Assembly: GCA_027078545.1 (NCBI GenBank)
Contig: JALWXN010000004.1
Coordinates: 96,001-160,000, forward strand
Length of the DNA stretch: 64,000 nucleotides
DNA from: Nitrososphaeria archaeon
Lineage (GTDB): Archaea > Thermoproteota > Nitrososphaeria > Geothermarchaeales > JDFR-13
Direction of reading: 5' to 3'
Shown: piece by piece, positions 19,540-64,000 of the stretch
Layout: each line of letters starts with the position of its first letter
How positions within the stretch are numbered: position 1 is the first letter of the stretch
Program-made: the position numbers and the translations under genes
The notes under the pieces: model-generated
What the model was told of the DNA's origin: nothing
The model's input: the letters and a program-made list of their open reading frames with translations, nothing else
The model's database searches: none

Positions 19540-19671
<132 letters not shown>

Positions 19672-27575: not shown

Positions 27576-27682
27576 TGGTGGAGGGGGTGGGATTTGAACC
27601 CACGAAGGCCTACGCCAGCGGATCTTAAGTCCGCCCCCGATAGCCCCCTGTAGGGGGTTGGCCAGGCTAGGGGAACCCCTCC
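27576..27682 (-). tRNA. tRNA-Leu(TAA) with 18-nt non-canonical D-loop intron (27640-27657)
   Basis: GCGGA-CTTAAGA-TCCGC; variable arm; D-loop insert forms a BHB (GGCC/GGCT helix, AAC and ATC bulges). Confidence 0.9.
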
Positions 27683-52421: not shown

Positions 52422-52543
52422 GGAGGGGTTCCCCTAGCCTGGCCAACCCCCCACGGGGGGCTATCGGGGGCGGGCTCAAGGTTGAAAGAGGAGAAACCCG
52501 CTGGCGTAGGCCTTCGTGGGTTCAAATCCCACCCCCTCCACCA
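52422..52543 (+). tRNA. tRNA-Leu(CAA) with two introns: D-loop (52447-52464) and 37/38 (52481-52495)
   Basis: Body nearly identical to Leu(TAA) at 27576; GCGGG/CCCGC stem. Confidence 0.9.
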
Positions 52544-52551
52544 ATGCATAG

Positions 52552-52670
52552 GCCGGGATGCCCGAGTGGCCCAAGGGGTCGCCGCAGCGGCCTAGGCCTC
52601 GAGATCCCCCTGCTCGGGCTAGCCGATGGGGCTCCGCCCCGCGTGGGTTCAAATCCCACTCCCGGCGCCA
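52552..52670 (+). tRNA. tRNA-Ser(CGA) with two introns: anticodon stem about 29/30 (52582-52595) and 37/38 (52604-52620)
   Basis: Aligns to Ser(GCT) at 13008 once the 14-nt and 17-nt inserts are removed. Confidence 0.88.
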
Positions 52671-57458: not shown

Positions 57459-58246
57459 AGATTGGGCCTACTGAAAAGTATCTATGGAGTGAGATCGAGT
57501 CTAAAGGATCGATACATCTGAGCCTTCTCGACCCTGAGGAGTTTCAGGATCGTGAAAAGCTTATTGAAACGGTCTCTATAGCCGAAGAAGCAGGTACCTC
57601 TGGCTTCATGATAGGAGGCTCTACAGTCTTCGATCAGAGCCTCGTTGATCGTGTTGTCATGATGATAAAGGAGGTGACGTCACTACCCGTCATATTGTTT
57701 CCAAATGACATCACAGGATTGTCACGTCATGCAGATGCCTTGTGGTTCATGTCGTTGCTAAACAGCATCAATCCCTACTTCATAACAGGGGTTCAGATGA
57801 GGGCCGCCTTCCTTGTGAAGGCTATGGGTCTAGAGGCCATCCCAATGGCATACCTGATTGTGGGTGAGGGCAAGACGGCGGGATACATGGGATATGCCCA
57901 TAACATACCCTTAGATGAGCCTAAGATCGCGGCTGCCTATGCATTGGCCGCCAGATACATGGGGTTTAGATTCGTCTATCTCGAGGCCGGCTCGGGAGCG
58001 GGGAACAGAGTAGACACTAGGGTTATTAGGATAATCAAGAAGGCCGTCGACGAAATCGGACTCGTAGTAGGGGGAGGCATAAAAACCTATGAGGATGCCT
58101 TCGACGTAGCTAGTTCCGGTGCAGATATCGTTGTTACGGGGAATATCCTGGAGGTGGATCCCAAGAGGATCTTCGACATCGTTAGAGGGGTAAGAGAGGG
58201 TGGAAAAGAGAAGCTTAGAACCCTTCATCGAAAAGCTCAGGACTAA
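57455..58246 (+). CDS. Geranylgeranylglyceryl phosphate synthase
   Basis: LLDP, MIGGS, FMSLLNS, YLEAGSGA, VGGGI, VVTGN. Confidence 0.93.
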   Translation: MKIGPTEKYLWSEIESKGSIHLSLLDPEEFQDREKLIETVSIAEEAGTSGFMIGGSTVFDQSLVDRVVMMIKEVTSLPVILFPNDITGLSRHADALWFMSLLNSINPYFITGVQMRAAFLVKAMGLEAIPMAYLIVGEGKTAGYMGYAHNIPLDEPKIAAAYALAARYMGFRFVYLEAGSGAGNRVDTRVIRIIKKAVDEIGLVVGGGIKTYEDAFDVASSGADIVVTGNILEVDPKRIFDIVRGVREGGKEKLRTLHRKAQD

Positions 58247-61200
58247 GGATCTGGATCCAACACTTCAGAGCTATTTCCAATCCATTATAAATGAGGTTCT
58301 TAGACAATACGATCTCGCTAATAAGCTGCGATCACAGGGTTCTGACCACGTACCTCATGTGGAGACTGAGCTTATCTGGGATATGGCTGAACGTGTTGAG
58401 AAGCTTATAGGCATAGATGGGATAGCCGAGTTTATCAGGTCCAATAAGGACTTATCAAGGGAGAGACTGGCGATTAAGGCCATAGACAAGCTTATAGACG
58501 GTGAGTTCGGAGATTACGAGCTAGGTAGACTCGTGGATCTAGGTGTTAGACTTCCCCTAGCCATCCTAACCGAGGGTATGACTGTAGCCCCTCTAGACGG
58601 GATAAAGAAGGTGGTGATTAAGAGGGGGCCTTTCGGAAACTATCTCTCCATATATTACGCAGGCCCGATAAGATCAGCCGGTGGTACTGAGACCGGTCTA
58701 TCAATAGTTTTGGCGGACTATCTTAGGAGGAGGCTGGGCCTAGAGAAATATTATCCAACAAAGATGGAGATCCATCGTTTCATCGAGGAGCTAAGGCTAT
58801 ATGAGAGGAATGTAGCTAGGTTCCAGTACCACCTGACGGATGAGATGCTGTTCTACATCCTTAGCAATCTACCTGTAGAGGTTACGGGCGTACCTACTGA
58901 TAACATCGAGGTGCTTGTGTATAGGGACATCCCCTCGATAGAGACTAATAGGGTTCGTGGGGGAGCGCTCAGGGTAGTTAATGATGGGATCGGGGGTAAG
59001 GCTAAGAAGCTTCTAAAGATCATCGATGAACTGGGTCTTGAGGGCTGGGAGTGGCTGGAGGAGGTTGCTAAGGGTGTGGCTGGCCAGGGTAAGGGTGACG
59101 AGGAGGAGGACAAGGTGCTTAATGATCTCGTCATAGGTAGGCCGGTCATCTCCCTCAAGTCTAGCACACACGGCCTACGTCTAAGGCTGGGGAGACTGCC
59201 CAATACAGGGATCTCAGCCGTAGCTGTCCATCCGGCCGTCTTCTCCGTATTAAGATACTTTATAGTCCCAGGGTCTCAGCTTAAACTGAACATCCCTGGT
59301 AAGGGAGGAATAGTAGTCCCGTCAAGAATAGCAATGCCACCAATAGTTGAGCTAGATAACGGTGATGTAGTCGAGGTAGAGACGGAGGAGATTGGTGAGG
59401 AGCTCTCCCAGAGGATAAAGAGGATCCTTTTCCTAGGAGACATAATCGTCTCCTATGGAGATTTCCTGGAGAACAACCAGCCGATACCTCCGCTACACTA
59501 TACCCCTGAGTGGTGGATAGGCGAGCTGGAGGAGGCCACGGGGAGGAGATATGACACGCAACTCCCTTATCAATTATCATATGGAGAGAGTTTTGAACTC
59601 TCCGAGAGGTATGGGATTCCCCTCAACCCCTACTATGTACCCTCCTTTGAATACCTAAATGTGGATGAAACTGAGAGTCTCGTCTCCCAATTGAGCGATG
59701 GATATGTTAAGCATGGAGAGGGCGAGCTAATAGTCAGTGGCTCTAGGGAGCTATCCCACCTACTTAAAAAGGCTAGGATCCCCTTCCGACGGAAGGGTGA
59801 GCTTATCGAGATCCGGCATAGATACTCCTACATCCTACATGACTTGATAAGGGGCTATAGGAGCCAGAGGTTGTATAAGCCTAGATTCACCAATTCCTCC
59901 GACGTAGTCTCATTCTACCTAGGCGTTAGGGTTAGGTGCCTAAGAGGGACCTATGTATCGGCTAGGCTAGGTAGGCCGGAGAAAGCTAAGATGCGGAAGA
60001 TGAACCCACCGGTACACGCCCTCTTCCCCATAGGAAGCTATGGGGGTGACCAGAGGAACATCGTCAAGGCATACAAGCAGAACGAAATAGTTGTAGTCCA
60101 GCTATCCATCCTCTACTGTGAGACCTGTGGGAAGTACACATATAGGAACAGGTGTGAGACATGTGGATCCAGGACTGTCCAGGCCTACTACTGCTACAAC
60201 TGTAAAGTAGACACCCGATCCGAGAGTTGTCCCAAATGTGGGAGAGAGACGAGGCCATACAAGAACTGGTCCATCAACCTTAGAGATCTTGTCAGGGAGA
60301 TTAGGGAGAGACATGGCCTAAGGATCCCATCCAAAGTAAAGGGTGTAAAATCACTCCTAAGCGGATATCGGAGATATGAGGAGCTATCCAAGGGAGTACT
60401 GAGGGCTAAACATGGCTTATCAGTATTTAAGGACGGTACATGTAGAATAGATATCACTAACGCTCCTCTCACAAGTGTCTCTCTCAGGGACATAGGGATA
60501 GATGTGGATAAGGCAAGAGAATTGGGATACCAGGTCGACAGTATAGACGATGTTATAGACTTGATGCCTATGGACATACTGATCCCCGAGTCGATAGTCC
60601 CAGACCTCATCAACATGTGCAGTTTTATAGACGAGGAGATAGTGAAGCTGTATGGCGGTGAGCCTATCTACCGGGTGAGGGATAAGACAGACCTCATCGG
60701 CAAGTTGGTCGTCGGCCTCTCCCCACATACCTCCTCAGGAGTTATAGGCAGGATAATCGGCTTCACCAAGGCCAACGTCCTATATGCCCATCCACTCTGG
60801 CACGCTGCTAAGCGGCGTGACTGCGATGGGGATCAAGACGCAATTATGCTGCTTATGGACGTCCTACTAAACTTTAGTAGAGAGTACCTACCCTCCTCAT
60901 CTGGAGGCCGGATGGATGCCCCCCTCTTCGTCTCCGTAGTTGTACATCCGGAGGAAGTTGATACACAGGTCCATAACCTAGACGTCGTTGATAGATACCC
61001 ATTGGTCCTATACGAGAAGTCATTGGAGAACGTGTCGCCTAAGTTGCTTAGAGAATATATCGCTGTGGTTGAGGACTTCCTTGGAGAATCGAAGGCCTAT
61101 TATGGCTATGGAGCCCTGGATAGGGCGCCTATCCTATCTACAATAAAGAATGTCAACATGTATTCCAAGCTCAAGAGCATAGAGGCTAAGCTGGATAACC

Positions 61201-61610
61201 AGCTTAAAATAATGGAGAGGATCTTTGAGGGCGACGACAAGGCCCTCATCGTTGAAAACCTGCTTAAGAACCACGTGCTGAGGGATATAATGGGTAACCT
61301 GAGGAGCTTCTACCACCAGAGCTTTAAATGCTCCTCCTGCGGAGCCACATACCGTAGAACCCTGCTCAAGGGGACATGCATAAAGTGTGGCGGAAACCTT
61401 AGGCCGACAGTCCACACTAAAAGCGTGGTTAAATATCTGCCCCTCGCCAAGAAGCTGTCTAGCTATGTGAGGAGCCGCTACATCTTGTCCTATATCTCCC
61501 TTATTGACTCTATACTGGCTTCAACGTTTGAGCTGGATACACCGCTTGGTACCAGTATTTTCGACTATGTTGAGAGGGACGCTACTCAACAAGATAGAAC
61601 TGATCAGTGA
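58200..61610 (+). CDS. polC: DNA polymerase D large subunit DP2
   Basis: YAGPIRSAGGT, RLGRPEKAK, HAAKRRDCDGDQD, GGRMDAPL, Zn fingers. Confidence 0.97.
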   Translation: MEKRSLEPFIEKLRTKDLDPTLQSYFQSIINEVLRQYDLANKLRSQGSDHVPHVETELIWDMAERVEKLIGIDGIAEFIRSNKDLSRERLAIKAIDKLIDGEFGDYELGRLVDLGVRLPLAILTEGMTVAPLDGIKKVVIKRGPFGNYLSIYYAGPIRSAGGTETGLSIVLADYLRRRLGLEKYYPTKMEIHRFIEELRLYERNVARFQYHLTDEMLFYILSNLPVEVTGVPTDNIEVLVYRDIPSIETNRVRGGALRVVNDGIGGKAKKLLKIIDELGLEGWEWLEEVAKGVAGQGKGDEEEDKVLNDLVIGRPVISLKSSTHGLRLRLGRLPNTGISAVAVHPAVFSVLRYFIVPGSQLKLNIPGKGGIVVPSRIAMPPIVELDNGDVVEVETEEIGEELSQRIKRILFLGDIIVSYGDFLENNQPIPPLHYTPEWWIGELEEATGRRYDTQLPYQLSYGESFELSERYGIPLNPYYVPSFEYLNVDETESLVSQLSDGYVKHGEGELIVSGSRELSHLLKKARIPFRRKGELIEIRHRYSYILHDLIRGYRSQRLYKPRFTNSSDVVSFYLGVRVRCLRGTYVSARLGRPEKAKMRKMNPPVHALFPIGSYGGDQRNIVKAYKQNEIVVVQLSILYCETCGKYTYRNRCETCGSRTVQAYYCYNCKVDTRSESCPKCGRETRPYKNWSINLRDLVREIRERHGLRIPSKVKGVKSLLSGYRRYEELSKGVLRAKHGLSVFKDGTCRIDITNAPLTSVSLRDIGIDVDKARELGYQVDSIDDVIDLMPMDILIPESIVPDLINMCSFIDEEIVKLYGGEPIYRVRDKTDLIGKLVVGLSPHTSSGVIGRIIGFTKANVLYAHPLWHAAKRRDCDGDQDAIMLLMDVLLNFSREYLPSSSGGRMDAPLFVSVVVHPEEVDTQVHNLDVVDRYPLVLYEKSLENVSPKLLREYIAVVEDFLGESKAYYGYGALDRAPILSTIKNVNMYSKLKSIEAKLDNQLKIMERIFEGDDKALIVENLLKNHVLRDIMGNLRSFYHQSFKCSSCGATYRRTLLKGTCIKCGGNLRPTVHTKSVVKYLPLAKKLSSYVRSRYILSYISLIDSILASTFELDTPLGTSIFDYVERDATQQDRTDQ

Positions 61611-61947
61611 TGTCCACGAATTTGATGGCCCCGTCCTGGAAGACAAGTTTATAGACGTTGTTAACATTGAAGTTTATGCCGAGGGCCTTCTCCTCCTCGG
61701 GTAAGAGGAAGAGGACCATCTTTAGATTCCTAACCTGTTGGAAGGGCATCACCACCCCCATGTTTCTAAGCTGGTTGACCATCTCCCTAACCATCCTAAC
61801 CTCGGGCGACTGATACCCCTGCTCCTGCCTAGTCTCTATAATGGAGAACTCTATCCTCTTCCCCCTCCCACCGCCTCTATTGTCGACGTAGGACTCTATC
61901 CTGGTTACTACTACATAGGTCTCTTTATCCATTTGTCTCGCCACCAT
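61582..61947 (-). CDS. Arcadin-1-like protein
   Basis: V..IESYVD..G..GKRIEF...KMVLFL.PEEE..LG pattern recalled from arcadin-1. Confidence 0.6.
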   Translation of the reverse strand: MVARQMDKETYVVVTRIESYVDNRGGGRGKRIEFSIIETRQEQGYQSPEVRMVREMVNQLRNMGVVMPFQQVRNLKMVLFLLPEEEKALGINFNVNNVYKLVFQDGAIKFVDITDQFYLVE

Positions 61948-62323
61948 CCTCCTTCTTTAGAACCCTAATATCCCTAATACCCGCTTCATATAAGTTTACG
62001 ATGGTGTTTGGACTAGCCTCTCCAAACAGCTTCCCGAAATCCTTGTATAGCTGTCTCCACTTCAGACGTGTCCGGCCACTCCTCGATATATACTCGACAC
62101 CTAGGACATTGTTGACCTCCACCACCACTATATCCTCTATCTGCTCAAGATCCTTCTTGCTCTCCGCCTCAATGTATACCTTCCCAACGTCATTCCTCCT
62201 CTCAAAGAGTATGTTTGGATTGTCCATATACTTCCTAGGAAACTTGGTCTTCCCTGTGCTCTCCACCAGGAACTTCTTCAGCTCTTCTAGGGTGCAATAT
62301 ACTTCTATCTGCATCTCCCACAA
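61925..62323 (-). CDS. Hypothetical protein
   Basis: 132 aa ORF overlapping the arcadin-like gene; SRSGRTRLKWRQ, GEAS.NTIVNL. Confidence 0.65.
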   Translation of the reverse strand: MWEMQIEVYCTLEELKKFLVESTGKTKFPRKYMDNPNILFERRNDVGKVYIEAESKKDLEQIEDIVVVEVNNVLGVEYISRSGRTRLKWRQLYKDFGKLFGEASPNTIVNLYEAGIRDIRVLKKEDGGETNG

Positions 62324-62402: not shown

Positions 62403-62479
62403 GTGGGGGCGATGATCGCGTTGGCCGCAACGACGGCCCTATCAACGGATGACTGAGATCTTGAGTTGTGAGCCCCCAC
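62403..62479 (+). ncRNA. Candidate box C/D guide RNA targeting tRNA-Leu
   Basis: 8-bp terminal stem GTGGGGGC/GCCCCCAC, C (CGATGA), D' (ACGA), C' (GGATGA), D (GTGA); guides complementary to the tRNA-Leu D-loop and anticodon loop. Confidence 0.75.
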
Positions 62480-62555
62480 TTCCATGAGATTTTAATATTA
62501 TTTGCGGCGATTGGTATAGGATTGAAAAGAGGATAGAATCGCTGGTGACAGGGTG

Positions 62556-64000
62556 ATGAGTGCCCAGTCATTATTCTCTAGGCTGAATAGGATCCGCCTC
62601 ACATCCCTAGTTATCGATTCACAGACCGCGCTGCACTATATCTCCCTATCACTCCTCGCGGTCATAGCTTTTCTCATAAGGATCCTGCCAGCTAGGTACG
62701 GGATCTACATAAACGAGTTCGACCCATACTTCCAGTACTACGCCACCAAGGTAATAATCTCGGGTATCGAGGAGAAGGGGTTACTAGGCCTCTTCGAGTT
62801 CTTCAACCATAAGATCGAGCTAACCTGGTACCCATATGGAGTCGATATGGGTGAGAAATACTATTTTGGGGTGCCATACTTCGGAGCGTTTACCTATCTC
62901 TTCCTAAAGGCCCTAGGCCTCCCTGTAAGCCTATACGACGTAGCAGTCTTCATGCCCCCCGTCGTCGGAGTAATAACCACGTTGATAGTCTACAAGATCG
63001 CTGAGAGGTATGTCCAGTCGAGATATGTGGCCATGATCGGCGCCCTCTTCTTCACCACGGCCTTCAGCGTACTGGCTAGGAGCGACCTAGGATGGTACGA
63101 CACCGACGGGTTGGGCATGGCTTTCCTCGTGGGATCCATATATTTCTTTATAAGGGGTATAGAGTCGTCAAAGCCTAGCTTCAAAGCTCTATATGGAGTG
63201 TTGGCAGGACTATTCACCGGCCTATTAGGCGCTACATGGGGCGCACATCAATATCCCTATCTAGCAGTAGCGATCTTCGTAATACTGGCGGTTATACTGG
63301 ATCTAGATGTGAAGAATATCGAGGTCCTCTACTTCCCCTTCTTCGCAGTCTCGACGATAATGCTTCTATCAGTCCCTACAAATGGTCTTAGCTATCTGGT
63401 AGGGGCGGTAGCCGTTATCCAGTACCTAGCCGCACTGATCCTACTCATAAGGAATGTAGTTGATATTAAGGTGTTTACAGGCCACCTTAGTAGGATCATT
63501 GGCCTAGGCATATTTGGGATGATAGGCCTCATCTTCGCCGTGGGTCTACTACCCGATGTAGGCCTAAAATCCAGGCAGATAATAACGGTTCTACCCTTCC
63601 TAAAGGAGGCCTTCGTGGTAGCCACAACTGTTCAGGAGCAGGCCGGATCCACATTCCTAGTCTTCTATAGGGATCTCCACGTAATCATCCCCTTTGCGAT
63701 CGGTGGCTTCGTTATAGTGGCAAAGAGGTGGAGGGATCCGAAGTACCTATACCTACTGATCCTATCGGCTTCCGCAGCCTATGTGGCAAACTCCTTCGTA
63801 AGGCTATCCATCATCTTCGATGTATTCGCAGCGGTCCTAGCTGCAATAGCGTTGAAGGAGCTGATGAGCTACCTGGTCACCAACCTGAAGAAGGGAGACA
63901 CAAACTATAGGATAGTGGCGTTCACCTTCGTAACTCTGTTCATACTACTGTCCTCCTCCATGATATACCTATACTCAATAGTCCCCATGTCTAGGACGAC
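62556..64000 (+). CDS. aglB: Oligosaccharyltransferase AglB/STT3 (partial, runs off window)
   Basis: MSAQSLF...IRILP..YG.YINEFDPYFQYY, WYPYG, RS.LGWYDTD, TVQEQ; many TM helices. Confidence 0.9.
   Translation, partial: MSAQSLFSRLNRIRLTSLVIDSQTALHYISLSLLAVIAFLIRILPARYGIYINEFDPYFQYYATKVIISGIEEKGLLGLFEFFNHKIELTWYPYGVDMGEKYYFGVPYFGAFTYLFLKALGLPVSLYDVAVFMPPVVGVITTLIVYKIAERYVQSRYVAMIGALFFTTAFSVLARSDLGWYDTDGLGMAFLVGSIYFFIRGIESSKPSFKALYGVLAGLFTGLLGATWGAHQYPYLAVAIFVILAVILDLDVKNIEVLYFPFFAVSTIMLLSVPTNGLSYLVGAVAVIQYLAALILLIRNVVDIKVFTGHLSRIIGLGIFGMIGLIFAVGLLPDVGLKSRQIITVLPFLKEAFVVATTVQEQAGSTFLVFYRDLHVIIPFAIGGFVIVAKRWRDPKYLYLLILSASAAYVANSFVRLSIIFDVFAAVLAAIALKELMSYLVTNLKKGDTNYRIVAFTFVTLFILLSSSMIYLYSIVPMSRT

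Follow-up and report, generated by a model that had tools for sequence, protein, structure and literature searches.

Among the described systems, the closest to the RNA considered here is sR47 of Pyrococcus abyssi, a stand-alone C/D sRNA whose D guide is directed to ACUCAAGAUC of tRNA-Leu(CAA), with C34 at D+5, and which methylates this C34 in vitro (PMC3413156). The sR47 literature (PMC3413156, and PMC7994747, where the Pyrococcus wobble guides are reviewed) describes neither a tRNA-Ser(CGA) target nor a function of the D′ arm; Pyrococcus also has a separate predicted guide for tRNA-Leu(UAA). A second trans-acting C34 guide, sR49/sR-tMet (RF02163; PMC2584109), targets elongator pre-tRNA-Met only; methylation precedes splicing because its D duplex extends into the first bases of the intron, and no pairing of the D′ arm with an intron is shown there (PMC2584109). 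Two guides also act on one pre-tRNA in the case of sR50, the pre-tRNA-Trp intron guide, which links the intron to Cm34; it is encoded inside that intron and both of its guides methylate (C34 and U39). The prevailing picture of C/D guides directed at tRNAs is that most use a single arm and that each has a single wobble target (PMC6009581). Both arms lie on the same tRNA in Pyrobaculum sR46, sR61, sR123 and sR126, dual guides that were predicted on mature tRNA sequences with introns not scanned, and helper pairing without methylation has been proposed for some guides (PMC6009581).

Here we describe an sRNA from a Nitrososphaeria archaeon (G000), encoded in a window of 64,000 nucleotides, the whole stretch of DNA that was analysed (G, C, L and f numbers are our handles for genomes, contigs, loci and families). 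Judged from its sequence, it is a genuine archaeal box C/D RNA of the Pyrococcus sR47 type, a likeness judged from the D-guide core, which is the complement of the sR47 target. The features of the locus are the following, in window coordinates:

62403..62479, + strand: box C/D sRNA, sR47 type; matches its own CM at E=2.5e-15, the sequence itself being in the CM training set
62403..62410, + strand: 5′ arm of the terminal stem, 8 bp with 62472-62479; the stem covaries in 57 homologs
62412..62418, + strand: box C, variant (ATGATCG); position 6 covaries with position 1 of box D
62419..62429, + strand: D′ spacer, putative helper clamp; +5 base C62425
62430..62433, + strand: box D′ (ACGA); GA conserved at this offset, position 1 pairs with C′ position 6 in the family (by eye)
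62449..62455, + strand: box C′ (ATGACTG)
62456..62467, + strand: D guide; +5 base G62463, opposite position 34; core is the complement of the sR47 target (PMC3413156)
62468..62471, + strand: box D (GTGA)
62553..63998, + strand: downstream aglB/STT3 gene (PF02516); linkage kept in the genus and in G010
61925..62323, − strand: upstream divergent ORF of 132 aa without a Pfam match; adjoins the sRNA in most family members checked

The first-pass annotation had called 62403-62479 a C/D sRNA, and the call is borne out by the 8-bp terminal stem, the four boxes and the covariation of both the stem and the C/D pair in 57 homologs. Spacers of 11 and 12 nt together with boxes C, D′, C′ and D give the archaeal box C/D layout. 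The boxes appear degenerate, yet position 6 of box C and position 1 of box D undergo compensatory changes across the 57 homologs (GC 38, CG 13, UA 1, GU 2, other 3), a pairing compatible with a K-turn. A D′ box two bases earlier (CTGA/CAAC) was dropped, as ACGA fits the conserved GA and the pairing between C′ position 6 and D′ position 1. No Rfam family reached its gathering score in the window, and homologs obtained only sub-threshold generic C/D scores; this leaves class membership untouched, because the Rfam C/D families are guide-specific. Fibrillarin is encoded in the genome of the sRNA (E=2e-75). No RNA sequencing runs containing the locus are listed, and the DNA runs with the locus are hydrothermal-vent metagenomes. 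A fold-back of the D′ arm on the D′-C′ linker (GGCCG/CGGCC, 62422-62438) is possible only in G000 and G002, and would mask the arm unless L7Ae refolds the RNA. Nearby, an Arcadin-1 gene (PF18653; 61582-61947, − strand) converges on that of the PolD large subunit (58200-61610, + strand).

Full-length homologs were found by BLAST in 4/4 congeners and partial ones across the class Nitrososphaeria, and the same guide core occurs across TACK, Asgard, Hadarchaeota, DHVE2, a euryarchaeote and Micrarchaeota. A GTDB pattern scan found the same D guide in Nitrososphaeria, Bathyarchaeia, Methanomethylicia, a korarchaeote, Asgard groups, Hadarchaeota, DHVE2 and Micrarchaeota, which shows spread rather than constraint because the D guide itself was the query; most homologs were retrieved in this way, so conservation of the guide is partly built in. 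No homologs were found in G141, G112, G160, G005 and G014. With sR49/sR-tMet the sRNA shares a terminal stem, variant boxes and a D guide ending in UGAGU; it works like that RNA without being a member of its family, since the target scan gave no D-guide match of at least 7 bp at C34 of tRNA-Met(CAU).

The tRNA genes of the window that concern the two guides are these:

52422..52543, + strand: tRNA-Leu(CAA); introns 52447-52464 (21/22) and 52481-52495 (37/38); C34 = 52477; D′ site 52440-52447
27576..27682, − strand: tRNA-Leu(UAA); 18-nt intron 27640-27657 (21/22); U34 = 27627; D′ site 27657-27664
52552..52670, + strand: tRNA-Ser(CGA); C34 = 52600; 37/38 intron 52604-52620, starting ATC; second intron about 52582-52595
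52617-52623, + strand: D′ site on tRNA-Ser(CGA), spanning the 3′ splice junction

The D guide, GAUCUUGAG, places D+5 on position 34. As first annotated, it pairs with both Leu(UAA) and Leu(CAA), and G62463 faces the wobble base in each: the duplex comprises 11 bp with positions 30-40 of Leu(UAA) (2 G-U), 9 bp with mature Leu(CAA) (7 Watson-Crick, 2 G-U) with a Watson-Crick pair on C34 at +5, and 11 bp with the Leu(CAA) precursor (4 G-U). Its score on the three target tRNAs was reached by 0/1500 shuffles, and that on all stable RNAs by 3/60; rRNA was rejected as a target, the best matches having just 8 bp with 2 G-U. The P. abyssi substrate has the same target (PMC3413156), and the Leu(CAA) fit is weaker here than in P. 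abyssi because the local tRNA has G31-C39. The box C/D class and the role at C34 of Leu(CAA) are almost certainly what is already known. In Leu(UAA) position 34 itself forms a G-U pair, which makes methylation of U34 doubtful, as a Watson-Crick pair at +5 is reported to be essential (PMC6009581); unlike in Pyrococcus, a pattern search of this genome for another guide dedicated to Leu(UAA) gave one chance-like match only. All five tRNA-Leu (those at 27576-27682 and 52422-52543 included) carry one extra C between U9 and A14 (UUCCCCUAG), a feature common to many family members.

A further target, absent from those first annotated, is encoded 8 bases downstream of Leu(CAA), where ARAGORN mislabelled a gene for tRNA-Ser(CGA). 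Very probably, to judge by comparison with relatives, the sRNA also acts on this tRNA before its intron is removed. On the precursor, the D guide forms 9 bp with a Watson-Crick pair at +5 on C34 (−13.1 kcal/mol), the final pairs being supplied by the AUC with which the 37/38 intron starts; on the mature tRNA there are 7 bp (−8.9 kcal/mol). A U-G pair adjoins the target base in this duplex. Across 46 genomes, every Ser(CGA) gene that has G37, contains an intron and has an exon other than AUC (34/34) starts this intron with ATC. In these genes the D guide forms 9-10 bp on the precursor versus 7 bp on the mature tRNA, while intron length ranges from 11 to 26 nt despite the constant start. Where the exon reads AUC, the intron is absent (3 genes) or starts with ATC, ATG, ATG or AAC; with A37, the D-guide match is lost in 5 genes. 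In Nitrososphaeria of the family Nitrosopumilaceae, Ser(CGA) combines A37 with the lack of an intron. A phylum-wide draw, read by eye, gave the same AUC pattern, and an automatic parse counted ATC intron starts in 46/57 CGA, 12/15 CAA and 10/10 UAA introns, against 5/57 for other anticodons. No Ser(CGA) gene was found in G003, G006 and G010. In families f11, f21, f27 and f39 the guide has GGUC for GAUC where Ser(CGA) mostly reads ACC; mature Leu(CAA) retains AUC in G174 and G198, where it pairs by G-U with the GGUC guide. The guide of these families followed Ser and did not stay with Leu.

These patterns bear on an alternative in which the sRNA is a plain sR47 ortholog that methylates only C34 of Leu(CAA), its D′ arm is an orphan, and the matches to Ser(CGA) and to introns are inherited accidents. 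We regard this as unlikely. In its favour, Leu(CAA) C34 is the sole target shown for sR47, one of the guides is an orphan in about 80% of the Pyrobaculum sRNAs that target tRNAs (PMC6009581), and in this genome the D′ match comes close to chance; against it, intron starts vary freely where the exon supplies AUC, and at position 39 the guide follows Ser, not Leu. The ATC start could also reflect descent from one inherited intron.

Several observations on other anticodon arms belong here. Outside this genus and Hermodarchaeota, the central BHB helix of Ser(CGA) is almost always mismatched opposite C34 (CCAG, CTAG, CTGG, CAAG, CAGG), which leaves the target base unpaired. One Ser(UGA) intron (L350; G059 C38:91048-91105) starts with ATC, unlike the two other Ser(UGA) introns. 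L429-L431 (G132, G195, G187; family f31) hold a C′-guide-D element whose guide, GATCTCGAGT, is perfect to C34 of Ser(CGA) and mismatched to Leu(CAA); it has no clear C/D′ half upstream and was not scored by CM. tRNA-Trp(CCA) (G000 C4:227692-227824, labelled Ile by ARAGORN) has a 37/38 intron starting with ATC, a D duplex with one U-C mismatch and a 9-bp D′ pairing upstream across the other intron boundary; it is a possible fourth target.

Our preferred reading, to which we assign a probability of roughly 0.75, is that of an sR47-type guide for position 34 of several tRNAs, which would be methylated before splicing with the D′ arm as a clamp on the precursor. The sRNA would assemble with L7Ae, Nop5 and fibrillarin and direct 2′-O-methylation to wobble position 34; its wobble-tolerant D guide would read several anticodon arms, at C34 in Leu(CAA), presumably at C34 in Ser(CGA), and possibly at U34 in Leu(UAA). 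If, as here, positions 38-40 of the Ser(CGA) exon are not AUC, this triplet would come from the first three bases of the intron, and because the intron contributes this part of the D duplex, methylation of Ser(CGA) would precede splicing. In contrast to sR49/sR-tMet, the intron start here copies the exon of another tRNA, so that one guide would serve both Leu and Ser.

The case for the clamp comes from relatives. In 10 genera with long introns, D′ pairs over 7-11 bp with the 3′ part of its own Ser(CGA) intron, at a site 7-12 nt past the D site, flanks included. Own D′/intron combinations pair better than swapped ones (permutation p about 5e-5; 4/720 among genomes sharing the GGCCA core; p=1/5040 in seven held-out families), values that are overstated because the genomes are kin. 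Predictions of D′ written beforehand from introns alone were met in f18 (the predicted UGACCAG arm is present in 6/6 genomes), G192 (11 bp) and G152 (10 bp). Both the held-out covariation and the blind predictions speak against a plain sR47 ortholog. Five Bathyarchaeia-type genomes have a D′ site in the Leu(UAA) D-loop intron, either in place of the Ser-intron site or in addition to it, again with covariation (GGGTCAGA versus GGGCCAGA), and G016 too has a 9-bp D′ site in a Leu(UAA) intron. No D′ match to the Ser intron was found in f5, f6, f7, f10, f14, f23, G200 and G202, and in several f16 genomes the pairing is only 5-6 bp; G089, G216, G041 and G015, in which box C was placed by eye, were excluded from the D′ statistics.

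Since the arm covaries with Ser(CGA) or Leu(UAA) intron sequence, it would read precursors before splicing, and since D′+5 on the introns of relatives falls on bases that splicing discards, it is best read as a clamp. D′ is thus probably a pre-tRNA clamp that acts before splicing, mainly as a helper on the same precursor, a role that we infer from a pairing shown by covariation. In most relatives it would bind an intron stretch, often the strand otherwise paired with the anticodon in the BHB helix; on Ser(CGA) it would cover the strand that pairs with bases 32-35, and would in this way free the anticodon for the D guide and meanwhile block the endonuclease. Most clamps occur on the two targets in which the D duplex includes a G-U pair, which suggests compensation. 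In f11, f21, f27 and f39 (L434-L439, L442) the D′ arm reads CTCGG(G), the complement of CCGAG in the D-stem of Leu and Ser tRNAs, and the clamp may have been retargeted once more in this way.

As in the Pyrobaculum dual guides, both arms would then lie on the same tRNA, and as with sR50 two guides would meet on one pre-tRNA; here, in contrast to sR50, the sRNA has a separate gene and its second arm apparently clamps. The window also holds an intronic element of another kind: in the intron of tRNA-Lys(CUU) (19540-19671, − strand), positions 19612-19625 comprise a 10-nt antisense, an ACGA box, a stem and an ATGA box, with the +5 base opposite the tRNA's own C34 (19637), that is, a half-size self-targeting C/D guide. 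Similar elements occur in Met-e (C4:248049) and Lys(UUU) (C4:292081) introns, and other C/D-like candidates of G000 lie at C4:707653 (+), C4:1135857 (−), C4:1137033-1137099 (−) and C4:500586-500636 (+).

The Ser intron of this genus is shortened at its 3′ end, and the D′ duplex spans the 3′ junction with 7-8 bp, of which 1-3 are G-U (shuffle p 0.05-0.13; weak in this genome, with 7 bp, 2 G-U and p 0.13), with a linker of just 4 nt in G004. The last two intron bases, which lie in the bulge opposite guide GG, are pyrimidines in 4/4 congeners versus 3/35 elsewhere, a sign that the D′/Ser pairing is kept, and the guide U at position 9 can pair with G39 of Ser as well as with A21 of Leu. The site in the Leu D-loop is stronger than the Ser junction site and lies 25 nt from the D site in the unspliced precursor, compared with 19-29 nt for the Bathyarchaeia Leu(UAA) clamps. 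From the strength and spacing of the Leu site and the pyrimidine signal in Ser, both sites may be used, on precursors, and D′ would here be a compromise, with 7 bp on the Ser(CGA) 3′ junction and, on the Leu D-loop, 8 bp before splicing and 9 bp after it.

The first-pass annotation had taken the Leu match differently: full pairing only after removal of the D-loop intron, a target at G18/G19, independent support for the splice site, and a dual clamp tying methylation to splicing state. The 9-bp pairing with the spliced UGGCCAACG exists (−16.4 kcal/mol; 8 Watson-Crick and 1 G-U), but it hardly depends on splicing, as the unspliced precursor keeps 8/9 bp (−13.8 kcal/mol) because the 21/22 intron starts with C; the junction alters the pairing by one terminal bp. 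The 18-nt intron is genuine, as its BHB motif and intronless paralogs attest; the D′ match adds no support for the splice site, since the same paralogs explain it, an identical 9-bp site being present in three intronless Leu tRNAs (UAG, GAG, CAG). With ACGA (62430-33) as box D′, D′+5 lies opposite G19 only and not G18; a G18-type D-loop guide would have G18 at D′+5, at least 9 continuous Watson-Crick pairs and a conserved target, and this arm is not of that kind. The D′/Leu match is not clearly above chance, its score being reached by 96/1500 shuffles on the three targets (p about 0.06) and by 44/60 on all stable RNAs. The Leu D-loop was rejected as the ancestral D′ target: in the sister genera it is unchanged, the guide differs, and the pairing has only 6 bp (G007, G008, G009, G012).

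That D′ reads the spliced Leu junction, methylates G18/G19 and couples this to removal of the 21/22 intron strikes us as very improbable. The spliced match exists, C62419, which forms its ninth pair, is present in the two genomes (G000 and G002) where Leu(CAA) and Leu(UAA) each carry the intron, and part of the D′ site lies within the BHB helix of the precursor; yet, computed from secondary structure alone, opening the site costs 1.4 kcal/mol in the precursor against 4.9 kcal/mol in the mature tRNA, congeners G001, G003 and G004 retain the D′ core although most of their Leu(YAA) genes (all those found in G001 and G003) are without a D-loop intron, and the D′ arm of the family reads introns. 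Gm19 is unmentioned in a thermophile review, and methylation of G18/G19 is unlikely as the purpose of D′ because D′+5 in relatives falls on discarded bases. What survives of the dual clamp is its spirit, two arms on one tRNA; the splice concerned and the direction of the coupling do not, and guide/target covariation is with Ser(CGA) or Leu(UAA) introns and not, family-wide, with the Leu D-loop.

Better rRNA targets, a search for which had been suggested at the outset, were found for D′ and not for the D guide: two 16S sites pair with D′ as well as the Leu site or better (−17.5 kcal/mol; 9 bp, 1 G-U). A retargeting of D′ in this genus to 16S rRNA (nucleotide G139 or G1256 of the 16S extract), as an independent guide, would draw on the slightly greater stability of these sites and on the presence of the first also in G002, the only congener in which a pattern search found 16S, the three others giving none. 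It is nonetheless improbable, as 44/60 shuffled spacers match the stable-RNA set equally well and the history of the family is one of pre-tRNA clamping.

Beyond the clamp reading that we prefer, a wider proposal, to which we give even odds, is that a single C/D RNA of ancient origin acts on Leu(CAA), Ser(CGA) and Leu(UAA), with the intron as an obligatory part of the substrate and D′ delaying the endonuclease until methylation. In much of Thermoproteota, the 5′ end of the intron would complete the catalytic duplex while D′ gripped a second intron stretch, opened the BHB helix and kept the splicing endonuclease away as long as position 34 lacked its methyl group; the clamp of this genus would have shifted so as to read both the Ser splice junction and the Leu D-loop.

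The role at C34 of Leu(CAA) is by itself already known. The literature searched describes neither targeting of Ser(CGA) that depends on its intron nor a D′ arm that grips introns, several primary papers on sR47 to sR49/sR-tMet lying outside that search. The persistence of archaeal tRNA introns is an open question, and the introns of Ser(CGA) and Leu(UAA) appear, phylum-wide, to be constrained at two places by a trans-acting guide. Such a constraint would give these introns a specific function, set the order of methylation and then splicing, and explain a seemingly orphan arm; if true, an intron that is obligatory in the guide's substrate would mean selection for intron retention.
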